A DNA stretch of 64,000 nt from contig CM000151.3 in the NCBI GenBank assembly GCA_000004695.1, positions 3,808,001-3,872,000 on the forward strand, in the 5' to 3' direction. Below, in pieces: positions 1,416 to 60,321 of this stretch. Source of the stretch: Dictyostelium discoideum (taxonomy: Eukaryota). The notes under the pieces were generated by a model. The model did not search any database. It was given only the letters and a program-made list of their open reading frames with translations, and had not been told where the DNA came from. Positions within the stretch are counted from its first letter, which is position 1, and each line of letters starts with the position of its first letter. The position numbers were made by a program, and so were the translations under genes.

Positions 1416-4603
<3,188 letters not shown>

Positions 4604-4611
4604 GTATGTGT

Positions 4612-4675
<64 letters not shown>

Positions 4676-4775
4676 TAAAAATAATAGTAAAAATAATATT
4701 AATATTAATAATATCAATAATCTTTTATTTTTAATTTTTTTTTTTTTAAAAAAGAATTATTTCATTAGAATATAG

Positions 4776-7112
<2,337 letters not shown>

Positions 7113-15671: not shown

Positions 15672-16719
15672 AAAACGTAATCCACAAACAAATTGTAAAG
15701 ATCCAAATATGTTTTGGGATTTTTTAGGTCAAACACCAGAATCAACACATCAAGTATCAATTTTATTCTCTGATAGAGGTACACCAAAATCATATCGTCA
15801 TATGCATGGTTTCTCATCACATACCTTAAAATTTGTTAATGCTCAAGGTAAACCATATTGGGTTAAATTACATTTCACCAGTGAAACTGGTATTCAAAAT
15901 TACACAGCTGAAGAAGCTGCCAAGATGTCAATGAACGATCCAGATTCAGCAACTCGTGATCTCTTTGAAACCATCGCCAAAGGTGGTGAACCAGCTTGGA
16001 AAGTTTCCATTCAATTGATGGAATTTGAAGATGCCTTAAAGTATCGTTTCAATCCATTCGATGTAACAAAGATTTGGTCACACAAAGACTATCCATTAAT
16101 TCAAATTGGTCGTATGGTTTTGAATCGTAATCCAGAGAATTACTTTGCTGAAGTTGAACAAGCTGCCTTCTCACCATCCCACATGGTTCCAGGTATTGAA
16201 CCATCACCAGATAAGATGTTACAAGGTCGTCTCTTCTCTTATCCAGATACTCATCGTCATCGTTTAGGTGTAAACTATCAACAAATCCCAGTCAATTGTC
16301 CATTCGCCGTAAAGGGTGGTGTTAAAAACTACCAACGTGATGGTTTCATGGCTGTCAATGGTAATGGTGGTAAAGGTCCAAACTATCAACCAAACTCTTT
16401 CGGTGGTCCAGAGCCACATCCAGAATTTGCTCAACATAAATTTGACGTCTCTGGTTTCGCTGCTCGTCAACCATACAATCATCCAAATGACGACTTTGTT
16501 CAACCAGGTGATTTATATAGACTCATGTCTGAAGATGCCAAATCTCGTTTCGTCTCTAATTTAGTCGGTCACATGTCCGGTGTCACCATCAAAGAAATTC
16601 AAGTTCGTGCCGTTTCAAACTTTTACAAGGCTGACAAAGATTTAGGTGCTCGTTTATGTAAGGGTCTTGGTATTGATGTTAATGATGTCATCAAATTCGC
16701 TGCTAGATCAAACTTGTAA
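15672..16719 (+). CDS. catA: Catalase A, exon 2. The spliced product is 496 aa.
   Basis: The acceptor ttAG is at 15670-15671, and ca+a = Gln. The exon reads ...KRNPQTNCKDPNMFWDFLGQTPESTHQVSILFSDRGTPKSYRHMHGFSSHTLKFVNAQGKPYWVKLHF..., including the RLFSYPDTHRHRLG heme-ligand region. TAA at 16717-16719. Confidence 0.9.
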
Positions 16720-28053: not shown

Positions 28054-28504
28054 TTAATTATCAATTAATTCATCAAATTGTTGTTGATCTAATTGATCTT
28101 GTTCTAAACGTTGACGTTGTAATTCTAAGATTTCAGGTTCAGATTTCCAAGAGATTTCATTGTGAACTTGGTTAATTTTATCTTTTTTTTGTTCAATGAT
28201 GATTAAATTATAGATTGATTTTATTAGAGGAGCCAAAGCGATAAAGATAAAGAATATTTCACCTTCATGAATATGTAAATTTGGAGGAACACCATAAATC
28301 CATAAGAGAGAGGCGGCAATGGTCCAAATGAAAACAATGATAAAGTTTTGGGTTATCAATACCTCTGGTATGAATGATGGTAAAAACTTTACATCCAAGG
28401 AGAATAAATTAAATGAAGAAGGATCAATTTGATTTGATTTTAATCTTTTTGATAATGGATTTGATTGTTGAGAAGTGTTAGAGGTGGTGTTGGTGGTAGT
28501 ATTA

Positions 28505-28535
<31 letters not shown>

Positions 28536-30168
28536 GATGATATTCATGAAATATCGAATAAAGATAACTTGAAATTAAAAATGTATGATAAATAAAAGAA
28601 CCAACAATAATTGTCCAAAGGAAAGAAACCAATTTCATTTGATAAACATTTTTGGTATCGTATAAAGTTGATTGATGTAAAGCCAAAGATTCGATTGATA
28701 ATGGATAGAAATAATTAACCAAACGCATTACAATTCCAACAGAACCCAAGAACAATTCACGAGCAGGTGAAAAGGAACTAATCTCTGATAGAGAATTTGA
28801 AAGATGATTTACACAATAGAATATATCCTCTTGACCATTGACTTGATTACCAATCAATAGAGTTTGAATAAAGTATAAAAGAACCAATGACCAAAACAAC
28901 ATGGATAGCAATGGTATGACCAACAATGTAAGAATACTATGTAAAAATTGTAATGGTAAATTGGATTTGATAATAATTTCCTTTTCAGCTAAACGAGTTG
29001 CAAATAACCAAACCACGAATAAAATCACACCAAACAATATACAAGAACCAAATATTTTTAAATTTTTTAATTCCTGAACTGTTGAGAATTCTTTTGGTAT
29101 TGATGTATTACCACCATCACCACCATCACCACCACCATCACTGTAATCAATTGGATTAAAATTATAATTTGAACAGAGGAAATTTGAAACACCAACAATT
29201 GAGAATCTTCTCCAATTATCTTTGAATGCTGTTAATTTGGTTGCAATTGATGGATTGTTGAAATCGAATTGATCAAATTCACCAGTGGTCTTTGAAGTTT
29301 GAATGGATGGTCCAGTTGGTGACATTATGATATGTTTCAAATGTGGTAATGGTAGATAAAAGATGATAGCCACCAATGAGATCAATAGAGCCATTGATAT
29401 CAATGCTCTAATCCATTGATGATTAATCTTTGTTGTTAAACCAAGTGAGAGGAAATGATAACTCTTTGAAGCCATTGATGGATTACGGCGAATCTCACTT
29501 GACAATCTTTCCAATTGTGCCTCTGTATAATATTTACTCTGAAGTTCACAATTTTGTTTGGAAATTTGTAAACATTTAGATGGCGTATACATATCACCCC
29601 ATGATTGTTCACCCATCTTCTCTATGATGTTCTTTGATGACTTACCACCTGAAACTGTATTCACTGTACCATTAATTTCATTTCTTTTTCTAATTGGTGG
29701 ATTATAAAATATAGTTTCAGTTTTAATTGGTTCTGTTGGTGTATTATTATTATTATAATTATTATTATTATAATTATTATTATTATTGATATTATTATTA
29801 TTATTATTATTATTATTTAAATAATAATTTTCATCACCATCATCATCATCGTCATCATCACTATCAATATATTCTTCTTGTTTATCTTTCTTTTTTTCTT
29901 TCTCTTTATCATTGTGTTGATTTATTGGTGTTGTTGTTGTTGCTGTGGTTCTGATTGAAGTGAATACAATTTCATCTTCATCATCTTCATCATCATCATC
30001 ATCTTCTAGTTCTTCTTCTTCTTCTTGAAATTCATCATTTACTTCATCTCTTTGTTCAACTACTTCTTCAATTTCTTCAACTATTTCTTCAATAATTTCA
30101 TCATCGTCATTGAATTCTTCAACTTGTTTTACTTTTTTAATGGTTTTTTTTGTTGCCTTTCGAACCAT
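28054..30168 (-). CDS. Multi-pass (about 7 TM) membrane protein with a long acidic N-terminal region. Function is unknown, and a nuclear-envelope/NEMP-like fold is only a guess.
   Basis: A 704-aa ORF whose hydrophobic segments include IRALISMALLISLVAIIFYLPLP, IFGSCILFGVILFVVWLFATRLA and LHSILTLLVIPLLSMLFWSLVLLYF. The N-terminus is D/E-rich and the tail is coiled-coil and Q-rich. Confidence 0.5.
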
Positions 30169-40102: not shown

Positions 40103-43100
40103 TTAATAATTAATTGGTGGTGTAATTGTTGGAATTGGTTCATTTGTGTTTATGCTCCATTCTTTTTTAAATTTTTTGATGGTTTCGGACCATTGGGTTT
40201 CTTTTTGAGTTTTTGTGAGGTTGTTTTTAATTGAGTATTGGTTAAAGTTTGATAAAGTTCTTGAATATTCCAATCTTATTAGCTTGTGCCATTTTGATTT
40301 TAATATATCATAATCTAGTGTTGTGTTGTTTATTTGGTTGTTCCAATTATCAATTGATTGAGTTATATTGATGTCAAATAATGATTTGCATAACCATATC
40401 CATATTTGGTGAATAACTAATGAGATTATGTTCCAATATGCATGTGTTCTGACTAGATCAAGATTTGTGTTTATATAATTCCAGTTGAACCTGTATTTTT
40501 TATATTGTGCGTTTTCTGCAAAATGAAAATTAATATTGATAGTTGGATCTGGTTTAAATGCTTTGTTGTTTGTTTGTGGTTTATAGATGAGTGTGTATAA
40601 TTTTGTTGTTTGGTTTTTTGTTAGTGACCAGTTTTTGTTTCCATTGCAATTTTTATATATAAAATATTTTAATTTGTCGTGGTTAATGAAGTTGATTGTG
40701 CGCTGACAATTGAAAAACAAATGCCCATAGGGATCATTATTCATTTCATTGTTGCAAATGGGGCAAACTTTGTTGTGTAGATGATTAATCGGAAGACATC
40801 TAGCATGGAATCTTTGCATTGTATCACGGCCTTTTGGATCTTTTAATTTTTGAATTTTGACAAAAAGTTGGTCGTATGTGTATTTCCATAATAGTTGTAT
40901 TGATTGTTGGTGCGAAGTAAGAAGTAGATCTGAATATTTCTTGCCAATATAGTCTTTTGATTTGCATTGGTGATTGTTTAGTATTGTCGAGTAGATTTCT
41001 TTGAGTGTTGGTGGTAGTGAAATATTATTTGTGTTTAATGTTTGAGAGGGTTGGTTTTTTGTTAATATTGGTTGTAGGATTTGAACTTTATCTTTTAGAT
41101 GTCCAATTTGAGTTGCATAGTTTTCCCATTCTTTTTTGATTTTTATAAGGTATGGAGAAGAGATTGATTTGTTGATGATTTGATCCATCCAACTTATCAT
41201 GTATATTGAATTGTTTGCAGATTTATGCATTTGTAAAAATCTGTTGTATATCCAAATCTTTTGAGCAACTTGTCGTAATTGTATATTCCACATACCCCAA
41301 CCACCTTCTTTTAATGGTTTTAATGATCTATCATAACACATCAAAGGTATTTTTGCACGTGAATGGATGGTTGATGTGTTGTTTTCAATGGAATTGGTAT
41401 TGAGAGTTGGTGATTCAGAATTTGCGGGAGAATTCATAAACCATGAGATTAATTTATTAATTTGAATTTCTTCATCTTTTGTAAATTCTTCAAGGTATGA
41501 TAAATATGTTATTGGTGATAGTGAGTAGGTGTTTATGATGGTTGTTTTTGTTTTTAATGTTGTGCCACTAGTTTTCCATAGCACTAATGATTTAATCAGT
41601 GTTTTCATTGTTTCTGGTAATTTCCTATGTAAACCATTATGATTAAAGAAATAGCCAAGAACTCTTTCTGATTGATCTTTTTTGGTTATTGGTATTCTTT
41701 TTGATTGTGGAATGTTGTTTATTATGTGTTTATCAGTGATTTTGTGGGGGTTGATTTCTATTATTGCACTTTTGTCAAAATTTAATGATGATGATGTTGA
41801 AGCGCAGAAATTATCGAAATGTTTGATTGATTGTTGTTGTTGTTCGTAGTTGATGTTGTATGTTGTAGAGTCGTCTGCAAATTGGGTAAATTTGATTTTA
41901 ATTTGTGGATTGGGTGAAATTGGTAATCCAATTATTGAATTGTCTGCATTTATTGTTCTTGCTAATATTTCAATTACAATTACAAATAAAGTGGCTGAGA
42001 TTGGGTCACCTTGTTTTACACCTCTTTTAATATCGAATTTTCTGGTCGTTTTACCATTAATTGAAATTTTTGCTTGTGAGTCAGATAATAGCTTGTGGAT
42101 TAAATTTATTAATTTTATTGGTATACCAATATGAATTAATGTTCTTTTAATGCTATCGTGAGAGATAGAATCAAATGCTTTAAAGAAGTCAAATAGTGTG
42201 ATGATACCAGGGAGGTTTTTAGATTTGAGGTAGTTGATTAATTCATTGATGTTGATGATGTTGTCTATGATGAATCTGTGGGGTACGAAACCAGTTTGGT
42301 TGTTGTTGATGATGAAAGGAAGTATTCTCAGAAGACGTGCATTGATTACTTTTGAGAGGATCTTGTAATCAGTGTTTAGAAGTGTAATGGGACGACGATT
42401 TGATATGAGTAAGGGGTTGCCTTTCTTGTATATTGTGTGTATAAGACCTTCTGTGAATTCTGTTGTGATGTGGTGAGGATTTTCTAGTATATCGTTGAAT
42501 AATGTAGTGAGAATTGGTTTAACTTGGTTTAAATGATTAATGTAGAATGCATTTGTAACGCCATCTGGACCGGGTGATTTGTTGGGGTTACAGGTTTTAA
42601 TTGCAGCTTCAACTTCATCTTGTATAAATGGTGAGTCTAAACCATTCCAATATTCATTTTTTATGATGGGCCATGTGTTTAGCATGAGCTGGTGAGTAAT
42701 TGGACAACATATTTGTAAGCTATATAGATTTGTGTAGAATTCAACAAACGCATTTTCAATTTGGTCGGGGTCGGATGTAATGATGTTACCATATTGGATT
42801 GATTCAATTTTTGCATCTTTTGATCTTTTGTTTAGTATTGCTGATAGATACTTGCTAGGTATTTCTCCATTTATATGTTTTTTTAATATGTTTGTGTGGT
42901 TTTGATGTAATTTGTTTTTGTTACATATAATATTGTATTCAGCGATGCATTGTTCTTCAAGATGTTTGAATTTTGCTGCTTTTTCTAATAGTATTTGTTT
43001 TGCACGTTGAGTTTGTTTGTCTTTGTTATATTGATAGTTTTTTAGAGTTTTAATAATTTTTGATTTTACTTTTGACCAGTTTGTAAATTGATTGATTGAT

Positions 43101-43459
43101 GTGTTATTGTGATTAGTTATTAAATGATTGATAATATTGATTGCTTCATGGTCATTTGCAGTACCAGGTGATAATATCCATCTTTTCTTATGTTTATTTA
43201 TTTGAAAAGGTGAAGAAATTGTTGTTGATATTGGATTATGATCTGATAATGAAGATGGAATTTGGTGGACTTGTGTATATATATTTTCAGGGTCTATTCT
43301 ATTGTATTGAGTATATATTCTATCTAATCTGTTGCCATGTGTATGAGTTGGAGTGTTTTTAAATTCACCTTGATCAATTAGATGGTGTTGGTATGTGTAG
43401 GATTGGATAATATCATCTAATAGTGAATTGTCGTTGTGGATACGATTTTTTCTTGCCAA
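40103..43459 (-). CDS. Retrotransposon ORF2 remainder: the APE C-terminal half (SDHNPI), the reverse transcriptase and a Cys-rich C-terminal domain. The frame is open but has no ATG; the track's M is a TTG.
   Basis: ARKNRIHNDNSLLDD...SLSDHNPISTT is the APE C-terminal motif. RT blocks include ...PDGVTNAFY..., LLNTDYKILSKV, FTQFADDSTTY and a CCHC-like CPICNNEMNNDPYGHLFFNCQ. Confidence 0.7.
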   Translation of the reverse strand: MARKNRIHNDNSLLDDIIQSYTYQHHLIDQGEFKNTPTHTHGNRLDRIYTQYNRIDPENIYTQVHQIPSSLSDHNPISTTISSPFQINKHKKRWILSPGTANDHEAINIINHLITNHNNTSINQFTNWSKVKSKIIKTLKNYQYNKDKQTQRAKQILLEKAAKFKHLEEQCIAEYNIICNKNKLHQNHTNILKKHINGEIPSKYLSAILNKRSKDAKIESIQYGNIITSDPDQIENAFVEFYTNLYSLQICCPITHQLMLNTWPIIKNEYWNGLDSPFIQDEVEAAIKTCNPNKSPGPDGVTNAFYINHLNQVKPILTTLFNDILENPHHITTEFTEGLIHTIYKKGNPLLISNRRPITLLNTDYKILSKVINARLLRILPFIINNNQTGFVPHRFIIDNIININELINYLKSKNLPGIITLFDFFKAFDSISHDSIKRTLIHIGIPIKLINLIHKLLSDSQAKISINGKTTRKFDIKRGVKQGDPISATLFVIVIEILARTINADNSIIGLPISPNPQIKIKFTQFADDSTTYNINYEQQQQSIKHFDNFCASTSSSLNFDKSAIIEINPHKITDKHIINNIPQSKRIPITKKDQSERVLGYFFNHNGLHRKLPETMKTLIKSLVLWKTSGTTLKTKTTIINTYSLSPITYLSYLEEFTKDEEIQINKLISWFMNSPANSESPTLNTNSIENNTSTIHSRAKIPLMCYDRSLKPLKEGGWGMWNIQLRQVAQKIWIYNRFLQMHKSANNSIYMISWMDQIINKSISSPYLIKIKKEWENYATQIGHLKDKVQILQPILTKNQPSQTLNTNNISLPPTLKEIYSTILNNHQCKSKDYIGKKYSDLLLTSHQQSIQLLWKYTYDQLFVKIQKLKDPKGRDTMQRFHARCLPINHLHNKVCPICNNEMNNDPYGHLFFNCQRTINFINHDKLKYFIYKNCNGNKNWSLTKNQTTKLYTLIYKPQTNNKAFKPDPTININFHFAENAQYKKYRFNWNYINTNLDLVRTHAYWNIISLVIHQIWIWLCKSLFDINITQSIDNWNNQINNTTLDYDILKSKWHKLIRLEYSRTLSNFNQYSIKNNLTKTQKETQWSETIKKFKKEWSINTNEPIPTITPPINY

Positions 43460-43489: not shown

Positions 43490-43930
43490 TTAGTATTGCG
43501 AGTAGATTTCTTTGAGTGTTGGTGGTAGTGAAGTTGCATATGAATTCTTTTTGATGGTATTATTTGATGCTGGTGCGTAAATTCCAAGAATACCAATTGG
43601 TAATTGATTTGGAAATATAACGTCTGCTAAAATAGCTCTACCATCAATTGTTGATATGTGTTTGAGTTTGAGTGTGTTTGGGTTATGGTTAATGATGATT
43701 ACACCATTTCCTCGTTTGGTGACAGAGATGATGTGATCGGGAAAATCATGTTTAAGTTGTAATGGTGATGAATTGAGTTCAGTGAGTATTGAGATTGTTG
43801 GACGAGGTGGAAGTTTTGATATAAGTAGTTGTAGTGTGTCAACAGCTTTTTGGTAGGAATTGTGTTGATTGTTTGGGTTTTCAGTGAATCCTCTACAATT
43901 CCATGTTATAAAGTTGATTTTTGAGCTCAT
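43490..43930 (-). CDS. Retrotransposon ORF2, N-terminal half of the apurinic/apyrimidinic-type endonuclease domain. It is truncated by a stop inside an inserted 84-bp duplicate.
   Basis: MSSKINFITWNCRGF...LTELN... then ...SLPPTLKEIYSQY*. The last 12 codons come from the duplicated segment at 43452-43545. Confidence 0.65.
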   Translation of the reverse strand: MSSKINFITWNCRGFTENPNNQHNSYQKAVDTLQLLISKLPPRPTISILTELNSSPLQLKHDFPDHIISVTKRGNGVIIINHNPNTLKLKHISTIDGRAILADVIFPNQLPIGILGIYAPASNNTIKKNSYATSLPPTLKEIYSQY

Positions 43931-45135
43931 ACCTTACTAGGTTTGGCAGCACCAGTATTGACTGGTTGTGTAGTCAGGGCATTGCTGCTTCTTCTTGTAT
44001 TTATTGGATTTGGAGTTGGTGCACTTGGTTTGTTTGGTTGAGATTGTAGAGGTTTTTGTGGTACAATTGTTGGATCGGTTGGATTGCTCATTGATAATGA
44101 GTTTTTCCCGTTATTATTATTTGAAGAATCACTTTTGTGTGAAATTTCATTATTGTTTTGGGATTGATTGTTAATATCAAGTGATTCATTTAGTATAGCT
44201 TTTGAACCACTATTTTGAAGTGAGTTTTTATTGCGATTGGAATTTGCAATTTCGTTGATTGGTGGGGTGTTAATGTTGTTTTTTGGTGGTTGATTGTTTT
44301 TGTTCATGTTTGGGTTTGTGATGGCATTTTTTATAGTTGTTGCCATATCTGCATTTTTTGCATGTTGAATTTTGTGTTTAGTGACACTACGTGTTGCAGC
44401 TTTGATATATCTTGTGATACCAGATGGTTGTTCGATCTTTTGATCAACAATGTTGTGTGTGTGATCAATTAGATGATATGTTATAATGTAGCTTTTAAAC
44501 GCAACAGCATATGAGTATGTGACAGTAAATGATTCAATTGATGTACAACTGGTGAATTTAGTGAGGTTGTTTGTAATTGCATCGTTTGCATGTTTGGGTG
44601 AGTACGTTTTAATGAATGTTTTAATGATTGCATAATCATTTGATGATATATCGAATCTATAGTTGAGTTTGTCGATATTTAGTGCAAGTTGGTTTTGAAG
44701 GTTGATTATTGAAGTTAATTTATCAACGTTGCAATTTACGAAGGCAGTTGCACCAATTATTTTGAATGCTGATGGCGACAGTATATCTTCGAAGAGTTTG
44801 TGAATGTTTTTGTGAATTTGTTGAATTCTTGTGTCATCTTTTGAGGTTAATTCTTCACGGATGTGTGGTTGATTAAAGTAACACTTAATGTTGATGGTGT
44901 TATTGTTTTTTTCTAAGAAAGAGAGTGGTCTTGTGATTGATGGAGGTGCAATGATATCTAATTGATTATCAAGTCCTTTGTTTAGTGAGAGTTGGTTTGT
45001 TGGGGTTTGTTTTTTAGGTGTGTCGATTTTTGCACTTTTGTTTTTTGTTGTTGAGGTTGTGGAGGTATTATTTGTATTGGTTGTGTTGTTATCTGTATGA
45101 TTTAACTGTAATTCAGTTGAGTGATCATCAGCCAT
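43927..45135 (-). CDS. Retrotransposon ORF1 (402 aa, a T/N/S-rich nucleic-acid-binding protein).
   Basis: Canonical ATG at 45135. The TGA stop overlaps the downstream ATG in an ATGA arrangement (43930-43927), typical of ORF1/ORF2 termination-reinitiation. Confidence 0.7.
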   Translation of the reverse strand: MADDHSTELQLNHTDNNTTNTNNTSTTSTTKNKSAKIDTPKKQTPTNQLSLNKGLDNQLDIIAPPSITRPLSFLEKNNNTINIKCYFNQPHIREELTSKDDTRIQQIHKNIHKLFEDILSPSAFKIIGATAFVNCNVDKLTSIINLQNQLALNIDKLNYRFDISSNDYAIIKTFIKTYSPKHANDAITNNLTKFTSCTSIESFTVTYSYAVAFKSYIITYHLIDHTHNIVDQKIEQPSGITRYIKAATRSVTKHKIQHAKNADMATTIKNAITNPNMNKNNQPPKNNINTPPINEIANSNRNKNSLQNSGSKAILNESLDINNQSQNNNEISHKSDSSNNNNGKNSLSMSNPTDPTIVPQKPLQSQPNKPSAPTPNPINTRRSSNALTTQPVNTGAAKPSKV

Positions 45136-45358: not shown

Positions 45359-45431
45359 TGGTTCTACTGAGACTCGAACTCAGATTACAGGATTCAAAGT
45401 CCTGGGTGCTAACCAATTACACTATAAAACC
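45359..45431 (-). tRNA. tRNA-Gln (anticodon UUG), 72 nt plus discriminator.
   Basis: The reverse complement is GGTTTTATAGTGTAATTGGTTAGCACCCAGGACTTTGAATCCTGTAATCTGAGTTCGAGTCTCAGTAGAACC. It folds with a 7-bp acceptor stem (one G-U), a D-stem GTGT/GCAC, anticodon stem CAGGA/TCCTG with loop CTTTGAA (anticodon TTG), and a T-arm CTGAG-TTCGAGT-CTCAG. It is very similar to eukaryotic tRNA-Gln-TTG. Confidence 0.9.
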
Positions 45432-46312: not shown

Positions 46313-46722
46313 TGAGTGTTATAAATATTTGTTAAATCAGTTATTAAGTTTTGTGGTAATTTAAGATCAGTTATATCAGCGACGAATATTTGATTTGAAA
46401 CTTTCTTCTTTAAGGCAACCTTTAAAATATAATAGAGACCAGTGAAAACGATTGATGATAGATTTGGATCTACTTTATTATCATTTGATGATACTGTTAA
46501 TTTATCATGAATAGATTCTGTTATTTGATTTAATTTATCCTCTTCTTCTTTTTTTACTAAATTAATCATTTTGGTTTTCATATATAGAACCAACAATGAT
46601 AATATATCCTTAATAAATGTTTGTTCAAACTTTTGACAAACTGGTATCATATTCTTTACCTCTGATGGTATATTATAACCTAAATATGAGACTCTTTCTG
46701 TCAATTTCTTTATTATAAACAA
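46313..46722 (-). CDS. COMM-domain (COMMD-family) protein, exon 1.
   Basis: MFIIKKLTERVSYLGYNIPSEVKNMIPVCQKFEQ...DLTNIYNT followed by 'ca', then a GTAAGT donor (reverse complement of 46307-46312), phase 2. The track ORF's stop codon is the TAA inside that GTAAGT. Confidence 0.6.
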
Positions 46723-47207: not shown

Positions 47208-48917
47208 TTATAACCAATTATATGACTTTTTATTTCCATATTTTAATATTATTCTTTTAATTCTTGATTTTAAAATATTAATAAAAATTTGATAAAAATA
47301 TTTCAAGATACGAATATTATTATTTAATACATTTTGTTTTATATGTTCAACTTTAATTTCGACAAATATTGGATGTAAACGCATAATTAATTTACATAAA
47401 TATAAATTTGGTTGAAGAAATGCCATTGCAAATATCGAAAATTTAGAAGTTAATAAACTATCAAAAATTAATTGATGGTGATTTCTTAATAAAAATTCTG
47501 CAATATCTTGTGGATTACTATTAAAACTACTACTATTATTACTATTATTACTATTATTACTATTATTACTATTATTATCAAATTCACTTTCATTTTCACT
47601 CTCATTTTCATTTTCATTTTCACTTTCATTATCACTATCAATAATTTTATATTCATCGCAACTAAAAATTGATTTTAATAAATCTTCATTAATTCTTTTT
47701 ACTTTACAAGTTGATAAAATGAATTTCACTAAATCTAATCTTACTCTTTCCAAAGCAAATTCTAATAATAATCTATTTTTTAATAATTTTAAAGAAACTA
47801 TTGATTTAAATAATTCTAAATCATTATTACCATTATTATTATTATCAGTGATATCCATTTTATGATTTAAACTAAAATCATCACCATCAGAAATATTTAA
47901 ATTGAGTAAGAAACCTAAATAATTAATCTTTTTAAGATTAAAACCATCTGAATGAATTTCTTTTAAAAGATTTATAATTGTTGAACTTTCTTTAACATTT
48001 ATTAGATATTGCATATCAAAATAAAATCTAGTTTTAATTTTACTATCTATATCTTGATCAAACATTGAATCCTTTTCTAATGAATCAATATAATTATTAA
48101 TTAATCTTCTTAATTTTAAAAATATCTCTTCAAAATTTAATTTTAATATTAATTTAAGTGTAATTATTTCTTCATTTTTTTGTAATTTTTGTGGTTGTTG
48201 TGATTCTGAATCTTCTGTTATTAAAATTGTATTGTTTTTATTTTTACTATTTGTAGTATTTGTAGTATTTGTAGTATTTGTAGTATTTGTATTTGTTGTA
48301 GTTGTTGTTGAATTTGAAATTTTAGTTGTAGTTGTTGAAGAAAAGAATTTATTATAATTTTCAAGATTACTATATTTAAAATTAAAATTTTTTACTCTTG
48401 ATAAGAAATAATTTGATAATTTCCAAGATTTATGATACAAATAATAAAACATTTTAAAAAAGTTTGGAATTGAATTATAAAAAGACATTGAGATATTATT
48501 TCTTTTAAAGAGTTGATTCAATTTTTCAATATTAATTAATTTAGTTGAACTTTGTAAACCAATGATATATAAATGTTTGAAAAGGTGATTAATTGAATTG
48601 AATGTACTATTTTTAAATTTAATTGATAACATTTGTTTTAATTTAATTAATTCATCAGATACTAAATAAACATCTTGAAATGAGATATCGTCTCTAATGA
48701 ATACTCTATTCTCTATTGGATCTATGATTTTATATAAACTATCATAATATTCTATACTAAATTGATTATCAATATCTCTTTTCAATTGTTGATCATTAAA
48801 TGAATCTTCTGTAATATTTGAAAATTGTAATAATATAACTTTTGAAACTTCAAAATTACATTCTAATATTGAAAATGCTAATAATCTAATTGATGATTCA
48901 TCATAATTTGTATCCAT
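47208..48917 (-). CDS. Hypothetical 569-aa protein with poly-T/N/S tracts and no recognisable domain.
   Basis: A long uninterrupted ORF with a canonical ATG at 48917. It contains a TNTNTTNTTN-type repeat and an acidic NESENENENESE tract. Confidence 0.45.
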   Translation of the reverse strand: MDTNYDESSIRLLAFSILECNFEVSKVILLQFSNITEDSFNDQQLKRDIDNQFSIEYYDSLYKIIDPIENRVFIRDDISFQDVYLVSDELIKLKQMLSIKFKNSTFNSINHLFKHLYIIGLQSSTKLINIEKLNQLFKRNNISMSFYNSIPNFFKMFYYLYHKSWKLSNYFLSRVKNFNFKYSNLENYNKFFSSTTTTKISNSTTTTTNTNTTNTTNTTNTTNSKNKNNTILITEDSESQQPQKLQKNEEIITLKLILKLNFEEIFLKLRRLINNYIDSLEKDSMFDQDIDSKIKTRFYFDMQYLINVKESSTIINLLKEIHSDGFNLKKINYLGFLLNLNISDGDDFSLNHKMDITDNNNNGNNDLELFKSIVSLKLLKNRLLLEFALERVRLDLVKFILSTCKVKRINEDLLKSIFSCDEYKIIDSDNESENENENESENESEFDNNSNNSNNSNNSNNSSSFNSNPQDIAEFLLRNHHQLIFDSLLTSKFSIFAMAFLQPNLYLCKLIMRLHPIFVEIKVEHIKQNVLNNNIRILKYFYQIFINILKSRIKRIILKYGNKKSYNWL

Positions 48918-49137: not shown

Positions 49138-49445
49138 TTATTTATTAAAAACTGTTCCTTTAAAACCAGTTTCATAATTTGATTCTTCAATAAAATCATC
49201 AAAATAATCTTCATTTTCAATAACTTTCAAAACTATAATTTGATTTGGAACTAATTTATACCAATTTAATTGAGCACAAGATTCCTTGAGTTCAATAACA
49301 GAATCTGGATCACCAGGTTTCCTATCTTGTGTGAGAATAAATAATCTTTGTTTAAAAGGTGGTACATCCATTATTGAAAAAATTGTTAATTTAAGTCCTT
49401 CTACTGTATAATCACTATTAATTGGTGAAATTTCATTTCTGAAAA
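49138..49445 (-). CDS. USP48-like deubiquitinase, exon 3 (C-terminal ubiquitin-like domain).
   Basis: The acceptor is the reverse complement of ct at 49446-49447. t+tt = Phe, then FRNEISPINSDYTVEGLKLTIFSIMDVPPFKQRLFILTQDRKPGDPDSVIELKESCAQLNWYKLVPNQIIVLKVIENEDYFDDFIEESNYETGFKGTVFNK*, in the same frame as the track ORF 49138..49371. Confidence 0.65.
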
Positions 49446-49524
49446 CTAAAAAAGATAAATAATTAATAAAACTTCATTTTTAAAATCTAAAAATAATAAT
49501 TAAAAAAATATTAAATAAACATAC

Positions 49525-51833
49525 ATCTTGAAGTTCTAAAAGTTGTTGGAAATGAATAATATTTTAAATCTTTTTCATTTTCTTTATCATTAATTCTATG
49601 AATGAATAAAGAAGCATTATTAAAATTTAATTTCTTTTTTAAATGAATTTCTTGTTGAATTAAAAAACATTGTTGACAAAAAGTAAATGGTTCTAATAAT
49701 CTATTATTTTCAAATGAAATATTGATATTATCTTTTGAGCCATACTTTGTAATCAATTTATCATAGATTTCTTTTGGAATCAATAGAAATGGTAAATTAA
49801 TTTCTGAAAGGCGACTAGTTTTATCAGTCAATGAAAAAGTTGATAATTGATTTAAAAATTGTTGATCTGATAAATCATATTGAAATTTAGAATGTTCACA
49901 AAGAAAACCACTATTATCAATAATACCAATAAAAATTTTCAAATCCTTAGTAGTGGTGGTAGTGTTTGAGATTGATTCGTCGATTGAATCACTTTGAAAT
50001 TCACTACCATCTTGATCTTGCTCTTGATCTTGACTTGGGTCAATAACAGTGGATCTCCAATTTATTAACCAATCTTTTGAAATTACATTATATTGACCTA
50101 CTGAAAGATTTGGTTTTTTCTTTTTATTGGTTAAAGATAAAAGTGCAAGTAAACCTTTCATATCTTTTTTCTCTTGTTTTGCCAATTCTAATTTCTCATT
50201 GAGTTTATAATCCAACTCTCTACAAATTAAACATTCTGAATAATCTTTAACTGCAAGAGTTTTAGACATTGGATATAAAGAATAAAGATATTCCCATGTT
50301 TCTCTTGTAATTGGTAATCTATCTTTTTCTTCAAGATTGAAACCATCATGAGGACAAATTAAATCATTTGTTGGAGTTATTGATAGACGTTTTTCAATAT
50401 TTGATATCTTCCATCTCTTGAACCACTCATATGATATATAATATTCCTTTAAATTTGATTTAGTGGTGGTTGTGGTTGTGGCTGCTGCTGTTGTTGTTGA
50501 AGAATTTTTTGATTTTGGTATTACTTTTTCAAGGGAAATACAATAATCTTTTAAATTTTTATTTGTTGCCAATTCTTCTGTTTGAAAGAAAATTGAATAG
50601 AGACATTCAGTACAAACACTTGAACTATCAAAAGCTGGTCCACCACCACCTACTGAATTATAAATCATTTCCCAAGCTATTGGTGAAATTCTTTTCATTG
50701 ATTCCAATTTATTTGGGTCTACACTACCATGAGAACATTGAATATTTGAATTATCAATTGGGAAATTTAAACCTTGAATCCAACCTTTTAACCAATTAAC
50801 ATCAATCCAATAATATTTATTTTTACTTTCAAATTCTAATAATGATTTTTCTTTAACTCTCTTTAATAATTCATCTTCATCATCATCATTATAATGATCA
50901 TCTTCGTCTTCGTCTTTGTATTCTTCTTCTTCTTCTTCATTTATATTTGCTTGTAATAATGGTTCAATCTCTTTAAAAAGTTCAATTCTTTTTGTCCATT
51001 CAAATTTAAGTTTTTCAAACTGAGAACCAAAAGAATCTTTTTGTTGACTAAATGAGTTCTCAATCTCTTCTAATCTATCTAATAATCTATTTGATAAATT
51101 ATTAAAAGATCTCAAAGGATTCGAGATATCCTCTGAATGAGTGATTCTATTCATTTTAGAATAAACTACCATATAAGCTGTTGATGATGATATAGTTCCA
51201 TTTTCAATCTCTTTCTTTTTTCTTTTCTCTTTATTATTGTTTTTACCTAAACTCTTAATATCTATCTCCTCTACAGTTTCATCATTAAATGTAAACCATC
51301 TACCAGTTATATCATCTTTAATTTGACAAATATAATGACCCCCACTAGTACCAACACCTTGATGCATTAAAATTCCAGTTAATTCATATTCAAAATCTCC
51401 TTCATTTTCAAATTGAATTGAATTTGAGTCTAAATTTGAAATTGTAATTGATTTTGAAATTTTATTAAAATTATTTTGATTATCATTTGTTTTTGTTACT
51501 GTTGTATTATTTGTATTTGTGTTTGATGTATTAGTAGATGTATTAGTTGAGGTTGTTGTTGTTGTAGTAGTAGTTGTTGTTTGTGGTATTGTTTTAAAAT
51601 TTACAATTTCACTAAAAAAACTCCTATACTTTTTTAAAAATTGATCGGATGAAAGTAATTGATCTAATTCTACACTTGTTAAAGTTTTACTATTTACAAT
51701 TTTTTGGACAACTCTATAAAAGTTTACTTGATTATATAATAATTGATTTTCTTCATCCTCCTCAAATAAAGAATCCTTTATACAATAAAATAAATCTTTA
51801 CAATCATTATCACTATTATTATTTTTATTATTA

Positions 51834-51913
<80 letters not shown>

Positions 51914-53085
51914 ATTATTCGATTTTAATTTATTTTTATTATTATTATCATTTTTGAATTGCATTTCAGATTCAGATTCAGTTTCTGAACCAGAGTCTCT
52001 ATCATCATCATCGTCGTCGTAATCGTCATTTTTATTATTATTATTATTATTATTGTTATTCATTTGTTGTTTAGTTTTTTGTTGAGTTTTATCTTTTGGG
52101 ACTAAATACTTTAATAAATTTAATTTTAAGGGAAATGTGAATGAATTATGAAGCTTTTTCTTTTTCAATTGTTGTCTATCGAAACTATATCTAAGTATTT
52201 GAAAACAAAGAAAAGGTGGTATTGTTGTGAGTTGTGTTGAACGTGAACAATCCGTTTTCTTATTGCAATTTTTACAAAAATATTGATCATCACCAGTTAA
52301 ATTTTCATTTGAGAGGAAACCTTTTAAAGATTCCTCTAATCCTTCAAATCCATTTAATTGCAATGGAATTTCATAAAATGAACTTGGTGATCTATATATT
52401 GTATTACAATCTGAACATTGTGTAGTATAATCATAATTTCCTTGAAATAACTTTTTTAAAATATTAACACTATTATTATTATTTTTATTATTATTATTAT
52501 TACTATTATTATCGAGAGAAATTTCTAATTTTGATTCGATTAAATCAAAAAATAAAATAAAAAATTCTTGGATATCTTGATGTAAAGAATTTGAAAGTTC
52601 TAATGAATTTACAAATTCACTTGGATCAAATACTTTAATTCTATTAAACCTCATATTCAAAAATAATAATCTTAACTGATCAATAATAAAATCCTCATTA
52701 TGAATATTATTACTATTATTGTTTTTGCTGTTGTTGTTGCTTTTGCTGTTACTGTTGTTGCTATTATCTTGATTGATATCAGATGGTAATTTAAATTCTA
52801 ATACCAACTTTCTAAATTCAGTATTCATATATAAAAGTTGTAATAATGAATTTACATAACAGGTTGCACCAAGATTCTTTAAACCTATGGGTTGTTCTGA
52901 TATATCTCTTTCTTTGAATTCTGAAAGTGATTCCTTATTATTATTTTCATGTGGTAATGATTGATTATTTATCAAATCTTTCATTAAGTTCTCTTTAACA
53001 TAAACATCTGGTTCGATTTTTAAACATTTTTGACCTAAATGGTGGAAACAATTTGGATTATCTGAACAATTTTTTAATAATTTCT
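49525..53085 (-). CDS. USP48-like deubiquitinase, exon 2: USP catalytic domain (Cys and His boxes) with large low-complexity insertions, followed by three DUSP-like repeats.
   Basis: The acceptor is the reverse complement of ct at 53086-53087, and the frame is open upstream of the track's ATG at 52984. The Cys box is GLKNLGATCYVNSLLQ and the His box is GGHYICQIKDDITGRWFTFNDETV. DUSP-like segments are YWIDVNWLKGWIQG, YISYEWFKRWKIS and YNVISKDWLINWRS. A GTATGT donor (reverse complement of 49519-49524) leaves phase 1. Confidence 0.8.
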
Positions 53086-53184
53086 CTTAAAAAAAAAAGT
53101 TTAAATGTTAGTAAATAAAAAAAAAAAAAAGGTAAAAAGTAAAAAGTAAAAAAAAAAAAGTAAATGAAAAATTAAATATTTTAC

Positions 53185-53389
53185 TTTTATTACAAACCAA
53201 ATTGATATTTAATGTTTTATTTAATAAATTTGAAAAAAAATTAGATTCATTATTTGATTTGGTTATTTCCTTTAATAAATCTGTATCATTATTATTATTC
53301 GTGACTGAAGAAACTCCATTTACTTTTTTCTTTAATGAATTGATTAGTTCAATATTACTTTCAAAGTTTCTTTGTGTTCTTTTATTCAT
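53185..53389 (-). CDS. USP48-like ubiquitin carboxyl-terminal hydrolase, exon 1 (N-terminal 68 aa).
   Basis: MNKRTQRNFESNIELINSLKKKVNGVSSVTNNNNDTDLLKEITKSNNESNFFSNLLNKTLNINLVCNK followed by 'a', then a GTAAAA donor (reverse complement of 53179-53184), phase 1. It joins to ...KKLLKNCSDNPNCFHHLGQ, which parallels the human USP48 N-terminus ...GVCRRNCKGNPNCLVGIGE. Confidence 0.55.
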
Positions 53390-54025: not shown

Positions 54026-54521
54026 ATGGCAATTAAAAAGCCAATTAATGTTAAACAATTATCAGATAAATTGGGAGTACCAATTTTACCAGATGATCCA
54101 CAAACCATTTATCATATTCAAGAGAGATTAGGTAAAGGATCATTTGGACAAGTATTTAAGGCAGTTCATTTTGCTAATGGTAAGGTTGTAGCAATTAAAA
54201 TCATATCATTGGATGATCAAGAGGCGATCAAAGATGTAAGAAAAGAGATATCAATTCTAGCAGAATGTAATTATCCAAACATTGTTCAATACTTTGGAAG
54301 TTATTTTAAAGATCATCAACTTTGGATCGTTATGGAGTATTGTGGTGGTGGTTCAGTTAGTGATTTACTTCAAGTGATTGATACCATCTCTGAAGATGAA
54401 ATTGCATTAATTTGTCGTGAAGCTTTAAAAGGTTTAAATTATTTACATGAATTTAAAAAAATTCATCGTGATATTAAAGGTGGTAATATACTTTTAAATG
54501 ATAGAGGTGAAGTTAAATTAG
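54026..54521 (+). CDS. STE20-family MST1/2 (Hippo)-like serine/threonine kinase, exon 1 (kinase subdomains I-VII).
   Basis: GKGSFGQVFKAVHFANGKVVAIKII...WIVMEYCGGGSVSDLL...HRDIKGGNILLNDRGEVKL followed by 'g', then a GTAAGT donor at 54522 (phase 1). Confidence 0.8.
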
Positions 54522-54525
54522 GTAA

Positions 54526-56217
<1,692 letters not shown>

Positions 56218-58270: not shown

Positions 58271-58511
58271 AAAAGAAAAAAAAAATTAATTATTAAAAAA
58301 TAAATATTTTAATAGAAAATATTTTTTTTCAAGTTTGGAAAATCAATCAAATAAATTAAATCCTTTGAATTCCAAAATAAAAATGAAAATTAAAAATAAA
58401 AAAAAAATTTTCTTTTTTTTTTTTTTTTTTCAATTTTTTTTTTTTTTTTTTTTTCACAAATCATTGTCGAATTTTCATTTTTAATTGTTGTGATAAATTT
58501 ATATTTAAATA

Positions 58512-60212
58512 ATGTCAAACAATTTATTTGGTACAGGTTCATCAACTTCATCATCATTATTTGGTTCAACACCTTCAGCAGGTGGATTATTTGGTGGTGG
58601 TAGTTCAACAACACCAGCAACAGGCGGTGGTGGTTTATTTGGAGGTGCCTCAACAACACCAGCAACAGGCGGCGGTTTATTTGGAGGTGCCTCAACAACA
58701 CCAGCAACAGGTGGTGGTTTATTTGGAGGTGCCTCAACAACACCAGCAACAGGTGGTGGTGGTTTATTTGGAGGTAGTAGCACTACAGCACCAGCAACAG
58801 GTGGTGGTGGTTTATTTGGTGGTTCTACAACAACTGCACCAGCAACTACTGGAGGATTATTTGGAGGTAGTAGCACTACAGCACCATCAACAACAACTGG
58901 TGGATTATTCGGAGGTTCTTCAACAACTACACCATCAATAACAACAACAGGAGGATTATTTGGAGGTGCTTCAACAACTGCACCATCAACAACAACAGGT
59001 GGATTATTTGGAGCAACTACACCAGCAACTACAGCAACAACAACAACAGGTGGATTATTTGGCGGATCTACAACCACACCATCATTAACAAGTGGTGGAG
59101 GTTTATTTGGAGCAACTACACCAGCAGCTACAACAACAACAACATCCTCAGCTATACCATCATTAACTAGCGGCGGAGGTTTATTTGGTGGATCTACAAC
59201 TACACCATCATTAACTAGTGGTGGATTATTTGGAGCAACTACACCAGCAGCTACAACAACTACATCTACAACTACACCATCATTAACTAGTGGTGGATTA
59301 TTTGGAGCAACCACACCATCAACTACAGGAGGATTATTTGGAGCATCAACAACAACAACAACAACACCATCAACTACATCTACAACAACTCCATCAACAA
59401 CTACAGGCGGATTATTCGGTGCAACTACACCAGCAACAACTACAACTTCAGGAGGATTATTTGGAGCATCAACAACAACACCATCAACCACAGGAGGATT
59501 ATTTGGAGTGTCAACAACAACACCATCAACTACATCAGCAACCACACCAACAACAACAACTACAGGAGGATTATTTGGCGCAGCAACAACATCAGCAACT
59601 ACACCATCAACAACAACAACAACAACAACAACAACACCAACTACTGGATTATTTGGTTCATCAACAACACCATCAACAACAACATCAGGTGGATTGTTTG
59701 GTTCATCAACTACTCCATCAACAACAACAACAACAACAACAGCAACAACACCAACAACAGGCGGATTATTTGGTTCATCAACTACTCCATCAACAACAAC
59801 AACATCAGGTGGATTATTTGGTTCATCAGCTACACCATCAACAACATCATCAGGTGGATTATTTGGAGCAACAACTACTTCAGCAACAACCACAACTACT
59901 ACACCAACCACTACCTCTGGTGGATTATTTGGAACATCATCAACTACCACCACCACTACAACACCAGCAGCAGTAGCAGCAACTTCATCAAATCCACTCA
60001 CAACATCAATGTTGGGTGGATCATCAACAACACCAAATCCAGTTTCAGCTTCTTTAAATAATAGTGATCCAATTGGAATTAATGAAAGTAAATTATTAGA
60101 ACAACTCTTAAATGAATGGGTATCAGAAATTGAAAATCAAACTAAAAATTTTTATGATCAAGCAAAAACTATTTTTGTTTGGGATCAACGTATAATGGAT
60201 AATTCTCAAAAA
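58512..60212 (+). CDS. Nup62/Nsp1-type FG nucleoporin, exon 1: about 40 GLFG/FG repeats and the start of the Nsp1_C coiled coil.
   Basis: MSNNLFGTGSSTSSSLFGSTPSAGGLFGGGSSTTPATGGGGLFGG... The end of the exon, LLEQLLNEWVSEIENQTKNFYDQAKTIFVWDQRIMDNSQK, matches Nup62 ...KWSLELEDQEKHFLQQATQVNAWDRTLIENGEK. The donor AAA|GTAAAT at 60213 is phase 0. Confidence 0.75.
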
Positions 60213-60321
60213 GTAAATTTATAATTATTAATTTACTATTATTATTCATTTATTATCATTTTATATATTAATCTTAATTTTTTTTTTTTTTTTTTTTTTT
60301 GATTATATTATATATATATAG

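Follow-up and report, generated by a model that had tools for sequence, protein, structure and literature searches.

A spliced USP48 gene on the minus strand of Dictyostelium discoideum AX4 chromosome 2 appears, in a prokaryote-style ORF track, as a reading frame cut short at both ends. With high confidence, this locus, located in a 64,000-nt stretch of DNA analyzed here as a whole (the window), is the orthologue of USP48 and consists of three exons that together encode 1357 aa (Table 1). Homology with human USP48 suggests that the two exons hidden from the track specify portions of the enzyme on which its stability and activity depend. The original prediction gave the product as 1256 aa; the assembled product is longer, and the earlier figure probably arose from the product that starts at the internal Met and includes exon 3, which is 1255 aa.

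Table 1. Features of the USP48 gene and its predicted protein (window positions).
Feature	Position	Strand	Description
Exon 1	53185..53389	-	205 nt; ATG at 53389; residues 1-68 and base 1 of codon 69
Intron 1	53086..53184	-	99 nt; GTAAAA...AAG; phase 1; 11% GC
Exon 2	49525..53085	-	3561 nt; residues 69-1256
Intron 2	49446..49524	-	79 nt; GTATGT...TTTTAG; phase 1; 9% GC
Exon 3	49138..49445	-	308 nt including TAA at 49140-49138; residues 1256 (part)-1357
N-terminal USP48 motif	53033..53194	-	C66-x8-C75-x5-C81...G86 (VCNKKKLLKNCSDNPNCFHHLG); split by intron 1
USP (UCH) catalytic domain	51161..52888	-	residues 135-710; Pfam PF00443
Catalytic residues	Cys144 52861-52859; His652 51337-51335; Asp670 51283-51281	-	invariant in alignment A1
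Lineage-specific insertion, ~235 aa	51401..52108	-	residues ~395-630; Asn/Thr/Asp-rich
DUSP domain 1	50630..50821	-	residues 824-887; PF06337 E 8.8e-6, 26.5 bits, isolated segment
DUSP domain 2	50243..50449	-	residues 948-1016; PF06337 E 1.2e-7, 32.5 bits
DUSP domain 3	49715..50095	-	residues 1066-1192; PF06337 E 3.5e-10, 40.6 bits
UBL (beta-grasp) core	49222..49437	-	residues 1259-1330; aligns with ubiquitin residues 12-73
C-terminal tail motif	49156..49173	-	E1347-T-G-F1350-K1351-G1352

The ORF list shows a 1157-aa ORF on the minus strand (49511-52984) whose start codon is an internal ATG and whose translation closes with ...RTSRCMFI*. As had been claimed for this ORF, the frame upstream of the internal Met is open and carries a conserved region: it extends as far as a TAA at 53089-53087 and encodes EKLLKNCSDNPNCFHHLGQKCLKIEPD..., and no ATG, GTG or TTG occurs in the open frame between this upstream stop and 52984, hence none before the NPNC motif. 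Exon 1 (MNKRTQRN...NLVCNK, plus 1 nt) and the 99-nt intron that follows it, both part of the original prediction, give an in-frame join (...VCNK-K-KLLKNC), and the codon of the invariant Cys66 (53194-53192) lies inside this exon. The ORF that contains exon 1 is 93 codons long; when the 715-nt upstream region was shuffled 5000 times, this length was never reached, and 68 codons were reached in 0.26% of the shuffles. At the other end, the predicted GTATGT donor (AGAT|GTATGT at 49525/49524) and the acceptor TTTTAG| join exon 2 in frame to an exon ending in ...GFKGTVFNK*, bypassing the false ORF tail CMFI*, which is a read-through of intron 2. Exon 2 encodes the remainder of the N-terminal region, followed by the USP domain, three DUSP domains and probably the first strand of the UBL; the core of the UBL and the C-terminal tail come from exon 3. 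The GC content of the introns is 9-11%, vs 19-25% in the exons; Dictyostelium introns typically have very low GC, like the 9% of intron 2.

The three-exon gene model is already public and is nothing novel, because the NCBI assembly GCA_054883475.1 (D. discoideum-type) has a called gene whose span, 4252 nt, is identical and whose product has 1357 residues. This agreement was judged on span and length: 4252 - 3x1358 = 178 = 99 + 79 nt, so the non-coding length of the called gene equals the two introns exactly. Neither the 1357-aa model nor its shorter forms (the 1255-aa variant and the 1157-aa ORF) had an exact match in protein look-ups, and the other strain's 1357-aa version had none either; the matches from word-indexed searches of proteins included no orthologue from D. 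discoideum, D. firmibasis or D. citrinum. A literature search for Dictyostelium together with USP48 found nothing relevant.

We infer splicing at both introns from conservation and annotation. The dictyostelid orthologues compared were those of D. purpureum (DICPUDRAFT_31545; P0001, locus L001) and Polysphondylium violaceum (CYY_007377; P0003, locus L002), which share 40-50% identity with the window protein over its whole length. Intron 2 has a counterpart at the same site in D. purpureum (L001 9108/9188, AGAT|GTATGT; at ...R|F/S-FRNE in both genes) and is absent from P. violaceum, where coding sequence continues without a break past the junction point (L002 9029-9580). One alternative for this end of the gene is that a sizeable fraction of transcripts keep intron 2, yielding a real shorter isoform ending in ...RTSRCMFI*, which would lack the UBL core and tail and perhaps serve as a regulatory inactive form. 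The read-through stop occurs only four codons beyond the split codon at the donor, and retention would give a stable ORF; moreover, the human USP48 module shows no activity once its C-terminal tail is missing (bioRxiv 10.64898/2025.12.27.696724), making such an isoform a plausible off-state. However, the intron combines a strong donor (GTATGT) with a strong acceptor (a T-rich tract, then AG) and a GC content typical of Dictyostelium introns, the CMFI tail is without counterpart in any orthologue, and the residues encoded by exon 3 are among the most conserved of the family, so that we regard substantial retention as very improbable. The CAG found 6 bases downstream of the acceptor of intron 2 leads, on reading the sequence, to stop codons.

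Intron 1 likewise has counterparts at the same position and in the same phase, namely GTATGT..TAG at L001 5964-6040 in D. purpureum and GTAAGT..TAG at L002 6182-6254 in P. violaceum; in all three genes, a phase-1 intron follows VC[ND]K. Exon 1 aligns with an unannotated exon in D. purpureum (41% identity, E 3e-15) and with an annotated exon in P. violaceum (E 2e-5). It is improbable in the extreme that the gene has an effectively single-exon 5' end, with transcription from inside or after 'intron 1' and translation from the Met at 52984 (1255 aa with exon 3, 1157 without): although the ORF list has an ATG at 52984, the intron 1 donor GTAAAA is not of the strongest consensus and the public D. 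purpureum model also begins without exon 1, the 34 conserved codons before the Met, with NC-x2-NPNC...G, have no start codon of their own, exon 1 is kept in at least three dictyostelid species with a Cys66 that does not vary even in animals, MIIIILIILFYFLE at the D. purpureum start is translated intron, and the other assembly annotates a 1357-aa product across the whole span. The public D. purpureum gene model needs its first exon added; this exon lies at L001 5705-5963 on GL871020.1, or about 52422-52680 in record coordinates, L001 beginning at 46718 of the record. The GTAAAA donor of intron 1 is weaker than the GTAAGT/GTATGT of the orthologues. Two alternatives for this intron, a GTAATA donor 3 bases upstream and the second AG of the acceptor AGAG, run into stop codons when the sequence is read.

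The identification of the product as a USP48-like enzyme was borne out by comparison with other proteins: the named top matches outside the dictyostelids are all 'ubiquitin carboxyl-terminal hydrolase 48(-like)' (E 1e-50 to 1e-61), while the next D. purpureum paralogue reaches an E of 1.7e-14 only. Judged by these best matches, the protein would belong to the USP48 orthologue group. A family-wide search of representatives recovered 264 proteins at E<=1e-30, with D. purpureum as the best match, which probably stands for a whole 50% cluster. The catalytic domain scores 119 bits against PF00443 (E 3.3e-34; cut-off 23.9), and a PDB sequence search returned the catalytic domains of USP47, USP28, USP12, USP46 and USP7 (E 1e-26 to 1e-15). 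This domain, together with the Cys-His-Asp triad, points to a USP (peptidase C19) deubiquitinase, and by homology with human USP48 the Dictyostelium enzyme would deubiquitinate substrates. As in human and metazoan USP48, the triad is accompanied by an AYM motif, here at residues 705-707 (human Y414/M415).

Overall identity to metazoan USP48 is about 27-29%, and the order of elements is the same: N-terminal motif, USP, three DUSP, UBL and C-terminal E-x-GFKG tail. One difference concerns the large insertions that had been predicted between the Cys and His boxes: owing to Asn/Thr/Asp-rich insertions, 508 aa separate the catalytic Cys from the catalytic His, vs 244-269 aa in the aligned USP48 proteins from metazoans and other non-dictyostelids (about 250 in metazoans). 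The poly-Asn/Thr insertions are low-complexity expansions of the kind usual in Dictyostelium, and they lie on a surface loop of the USP domain. An (AAT)n tract occupies 51806-51952 within the insertion, which also holds a non-repetitive island (residues ~505-560) resembling P0004 weakly (E 0.044). In both D. purpureum and P. violaceum the large catalytic-domain insertion is much shorter, and P. violaceum, unlike the window gene, has a low-complexity insert of ~150 aa that separates the N-terminal motif from the Cys box. The window protein also differs from metazoan USP48 in extra acidic or low-complexity linkers before DUSP1 and inside DUSP3, in a longer leader encoded by exon 1 (residues 1-55, poorly conserved) and in a UBL that is missed by the Pfam ubiquitin model.

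Beyond the catalytic domain, the predicted order USP - 3xDUSP - UBL was recovered, with a Pfam UCH domain, three DUSP stretches and a profile and fold match to ubiquitin. The whole protein scores 51.5 bits against PF06337 over 3 stretches in tandem (cut-off 29.3), with the stretch of domain 1 alone falling below the cut-off, and domain 3 holds an internal acidic and Thr-rich insertion. For the UBL, the Pfam ubiquitin model PF00240 has no match to the single sequence, and the domain is visible only by family profile or fold comparison. A profile of the C-terminal family aligned with ubiquitin in hhalign (probability 96.5%, E 8.5e-10), and a PDB search with the same profile found single ubiquitin chains at about E 1e-7. 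An AF2 model of exon 3 alone (pLDDT 76.5) had as its top Foldseek PDB matches only ubiquitin, ISG15 or the TBCE UBL. The family profile and the modeled fold together argue for a C-terminal ubiquitin-like domain, as in the USP48 group.

The two ends of the protein, encoded in part or in full by the hidden exons, carry conserved motifs. The N-terminal NC-x2-NPNC motif, originally matched to human USP48, is seen in the alignment to be common to metazoan USP48, and C66, N74, C75, P79, C81 and G86 are invariant among 3 dictyostelid and 4 other USP48 sequences (alignment A3). The full pattern C...NC-x2-NPNC-x3-(L/I)G is present in the window protein and also in P0056 (CRQNCKGNPNCLVGLGE); beyond D. 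purpureum and P. violaceum, two sequences with the same motif, starting MSKRK... and MNKRK..., appear to be dictyostelid orthologues. In human USP48 the N-terminal region has been called 'nonstructural', and its role is treated in a preprint (bioRxiv 10.64898/2025.12.27.696724). By homology with the human protein, the N-terminal region, encoded partly by exon 1, would help to stabilise a USP-DUSP1 'enzyme module'.

In the C-terminal tail, E1347, G1349, F1350 and G1352 are invariant and K1351 is nearly so (alignments A1/A2), and the stretch E1347...G1352 corresponds to E1024/E1025, F1027 and K1028 of the human USP48 CTR, residues of a tail that activates the human enzyme in cis (bioRxiv 10.64898/2025.12.27.696724). 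By homology, the very end of the protein, a tail that exon 3 encodes, would fold onto the catalytic groove and the ubiquitin tail, activating the enzyme. If the N-terminal region stabilises and the tail activates, the unspliced read-outs, with the internal Met start or the RCMFI* stop, would give an unstable or inactive protein. A parallel between USP48 and cis-activation of the USP7/USP40/USP47 type, in which the proposed role of a C-terminal peptide after the ubiquitin-like domain(s) is to associate with the catalytic domain and bring the triad into alignment, is drawn in the same preprint (bioRxiv 10.64898/2025.12.27.696724). The tail motif of this C-terminal cis-activation is conserved in the Dictyostelium protein, for which the mechanism would hold by homology with human USP48; USP7 differs in having a five-UBL HUBL array, as opposed to the DUSP domains and single UBL found here. 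The complete USP48 architecture, cis-activating tail motif included, occurs in Dictyostelium (Amoebozoa) as well as in animals and is therefore probably ancient.

Each of the three DUSP domains contains an invariant C-x-H...C-x-x-C quartet. Taken jointly with the N-terminal cysteines, these quartets could be zinc sites, with C66/C75/C81 forming a small metal-binding or otherwise structured knuckle that docks the N-terminal region onto USP/DUSP1, a combined reading that we consider rather unlikely. If true, these structural metal sites of USP48 would be ancient and hitherto undescribed, and folding would require exon 1.

Scans with bacterial-type models, which are irrelevant to a eukaryote, gave 48 promoter-like sites vs 50 expected in shuffles, a chance level, and three terminator-like matches, all within coding sequence. 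The USP48 gene is flanked by a 569-aa gene that ends at 47208 and by a Ste20-like kinase gene that starts at 54026. The surroundings of the gene include a 122-aa cofilin-like gene as a neighbour and, as in D. purpureum, a divergent Ser/Thr kinase gene upstream of the USP48 gene. Elsewhere in the window, 28057-30168 is DDB_G0274347, with catA close by.

The ORF track over this locus is a mechanical stop-to-stop list, to which introns are invisible, and shows a 1157-aa ORF (49511-52984, minus strand) that starts at an internal Met (MKDLINNQ...) and ends in ...FRTSRCMFI*. As the original prediction had noted, its frame stays open upstream of this ATG. It reads EKLLKNCSDNPNCFHHLGQKCLKIEPDVYVKENL-M back to a TAA at 53089-53087, and no ATG, GTG or TTG occurs in that frame between the TAA and the ATG at 52984. 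The start is instead supplied by a separate ORF (MNKRTQRN...), which provides exon 1 and joins exon 2 in frame and in phase 1 (...NLVCNK-K-KLLKNC...). At the other end, exon 2 is likewise spliced in frame to exon 3 (...TTFRTSR-F-FRNEISP...), which continues to ...ETGFKGTVFNK* at 49138. Other nearby GT/AG choices were ruled out by the immediate stop codons read off the sequence. The exons are richer in G+C (19-25%) than either intron (see table). When the 715-nt upstream region was shuffled 5000 times, no ATG-started ORF of 93 codons arose, and one of at least 68 codons appeared in 0.26% of the shuffles. The assembled protein has 1357 aa, and the predicted length of 1256 aa was therefore wrong; joining the internal Met to exon 3 yields 1255 aa.

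Gene structure and DUSP cysteine/histidine quartets of the USP48-like gene (window positions; residues of the 1357-aa product)
Feature	Position	Strand	Length	Details
Exon 1	53389-53185	minus	205 nt	from ATG 53389; ends at donor GT at 53184 (AAAA/GTAAAATATTT)
Intron 1	53184-53086	minus	99 nt	acceptor AG 53087-53086 (TTTTTTTTTTAAG/AGAAA); 11% G+C; phase 1
Exon 2	53085-49525	minus
Intron 2	49524-49446	minus	79 nt	donor AGAT/GTATGT 49525/49524; acceptor TTTTAG/TTTTC 49446/49445; 9% G+C; phase 1
Exon 3	49445-49138	minus
DUSP quartets	49715-50821			C852/H854/C893/C896; C979/H981/C1020/C1023; C1131/H1133/C1205/C1208

The best homologues in a protein search were dictyostelid, namely D. purpureum DICPUDRAFT_31545 and Polysphondylium violaceum CYY_007377, and we read the genomic loci of both (L001 and L002, respectively) against the window gene. 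The annotated P. violaceum protein starts MNKRKLKELE...HIDRVCDK, and its intron 1 (73 nt, GTAAGT...TAG) lies at the identical codon position and phase. The annotated D. purpureum protein starts MIIIILIILFYFLEKPTKNC (also given as MIIIILIILFYFLE), which is the translated 3’ end of an intron. Upstream lies an unannotated exon of 259 nt (L001 5705-5963; GL871020.1) encoding MKNNSSNKRKQRDFE...TLNINLVCDK, directly followed by a 77-nt intron (GTATGT...TAG; exon and intron together, L001 5705-6040) at the same position and phase as in the window. The public model DICPUDRAFT_31545 lacks the conserved first exon. Window exon 1 is 41% identical to this D. purpureum exon (E 3e-15) and 29% identical to P. 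violaceum exon 1 (E 2e-5). Two further homologues from an exhaustive search, taken to be dictyostelid, start MSKRK... and MNKRK... and both carry the N-terminal motif. Intron 2 occupies the same site in D. purpureum, with the same AGAT/GTATGT donor (L001 9108/9188). P. violaceum has no intron 2, and its coding sequence runs colinearly over the junction (L002 9029-9580), direct evidence that exons 2 and 3 encode parts of a single protein; this intron has been gained or lost within the dictyostelids.

The same gene is already called in assembly GCA_054883475.1, which we reached through the neighbouring 122-aa cofilin-like gene. Across the gene, the two sequences differ at 2 of 4252 bases, both altering the protein (T346R and T5K, at window 52254 and 53376); K5 is also the residue found in P. 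violaceum (MNKRK). The called gene lies on the minus strand, covers the identical 4252-nt stretch and encodes 1357 residues, the agreement being one of span and length. Since 4252 - 3x1358 = 178 = 99 + 79 nt, its intron total equals that of the three-exon model. Because this model is already public and the family well known, the finding, which concerns a nuclear gene in a model eukaryote whose genome is well annotated, is not novel.

Pfam assigns a USP/UCH catalytic domain to residues 135-710 (E 3.3e-34) and three DUSP stretches to residues 824-887, 948-1016 and 1066-1192. The Pfam ubiquitin model did not match the C-terminus as a single sequence. Residues 12-73 of ubiquitin were matched by a profile of the family's C-terminal region (hhalign probability 96.5%, E 8.5e-10), and a PDB search with this profile brought up chains of ubiquitin, ISG15 and eS31. 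When the exon 3 peptide was modelled with AlphaFold2 (mean pLDDT 76.5), ubiquitin-fold proteins alone made up the best matches in Foldseek, namely ISG15, the TBCE UBL and ubiquitin. The first UBL strand is probably SLFIHRIN, encoded by exon 2, so that exon 3 alone would not be quite a whole UBL domain. Every named match outside the dictyostelids in the protein search was USP48, and an exhaustive search gave 264 relatives at E<=1e-30. The original observation is confirmed, and its interpretation as a three-exon USP48 orthologue of USP-3xDUSP-UBL order is supported.

A 12-sequence alignment with USP48 proteins of dictyostelids and metazoans shows the catalytic residues Cys144, His652 and Asp670 to be invariant, together with the CxxC pairs of the zinc ribbon in the fingers; the AYM motif (residues 705-707) is nearly so. 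The catalytic Cys and His lie 508 aa apart in the window protein, as against 244-269 aa in sequences from metazoans and others outside the dictyostelids, and about 290-315 aa in three further dictyostelid sequences, bearing out the unusually large insertions predicted. A single insertion spanning residues ~395-630 (about 235 aa) accounts for most of the excess; an (AAT)n tract at 51806-51952 lies within it. This low-complexity insertion also holds a non-repetitive island (window ~51610-51775, residues ~505-560, ...QLLYNQVNFYRVVQKIVNSKTLTSVELDQLLSSDQFLKKYRSFFSEIVNF) that looks helical; it weakly resembles the same position in another orthologue, P0004 (E 0.044), and is absent in D. purpureum.

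Both exons missing from the ORF track carry conserved residues. In the N-terminal alignment, six positions are invariant across Dictyostelium and animals (C66, N74, C75, P79, C81 and G86); exon 1 encodes the first and exon 2 the rest, so intron 1 divides the motif, which cannot be translated without exon 1. According to a recent preprint (bioRxiv 10.64898/2025.12.27.696724), expression of the human USP48 USP domain requires both DUSP1 and the N-terminal region (aa 1-88), which together with it form the "enzyme module"; this module is reported to be inactive without the attached C-terminal region (aa 1010-1035), whose E1024, E1025, F1027 and K1028 touch the tail of ubiquitin as well as the catalytic groove. 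The counterpart of these contact residues is E-x-G-F-K-G (residues 1347-1352, exon 3), invariant or nearly invariant across the family. By homology with these human regions, the truncated products that the ORF would yield on its own are expected to lack stability or activity.

Each DUSP domain also contains a C-x-H...C-x-x-C quartet (residues 852-896, 979-1023 and 1131-1208). Quartets one and two are invariant throughout, whereas the third has three nearly invariant cysteines and a histidine, H1133, that counts among neither the invariant nor the nearly invariant positions. These quartets may be zinc sites and, more broadly, the invariant Cys/His patterns of the N-terminal region and DUSP domains may bind metal. 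Such patterns, the first exon missing from the public D. purpureum model and the gain or loss of intron 2 are minor by-products of the analysis.

The window has 24% G+C and many poly-Asn and poly-Thr coding tracts. Protein look-ups placed DDB_G0274347 of D. discoideum AX4 at 28057-30168(-) (exact match) and part of catalase A (catA, DDB_G0274595) at 15709-16716. A Dna2 nuclease/helicase homologue is broken into two ORFs (1416-4775, Dna2 domain; 4915-7083, AAA_11/AAA_12 helicase), presumably another spliced gene divided by the ORF list. A reverse-transcriptase ORF (40103-43459, minus) and a second ORF (43927-45135, minus), with a gene for tRNA-Gln(TTG) (45359-45431, minus) about 220 bp away, look like a tRNA-gene-targeted (TRE-type) non-LTR retrotransposon. 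Antisense (498 aa) and other-frame ORFs mirroring an FG-repeat, Nsp1-like nucleoporin ORF (58505-60224, plus) look like artefacts of repetitive composition. Divergent from the USP48 gene, and sharing a 636-bp AT-rich intergenic region with it, is a kinase gene (54026-56187) that we read as Ste20-like; its first intron (~54526-54610, GTAAGT...TTAG, phase 1) matches both USP48 introns in type, and in D. purpureum a Ser/Thr kinase gene is likewise divergent upstream of the USP48 gene.
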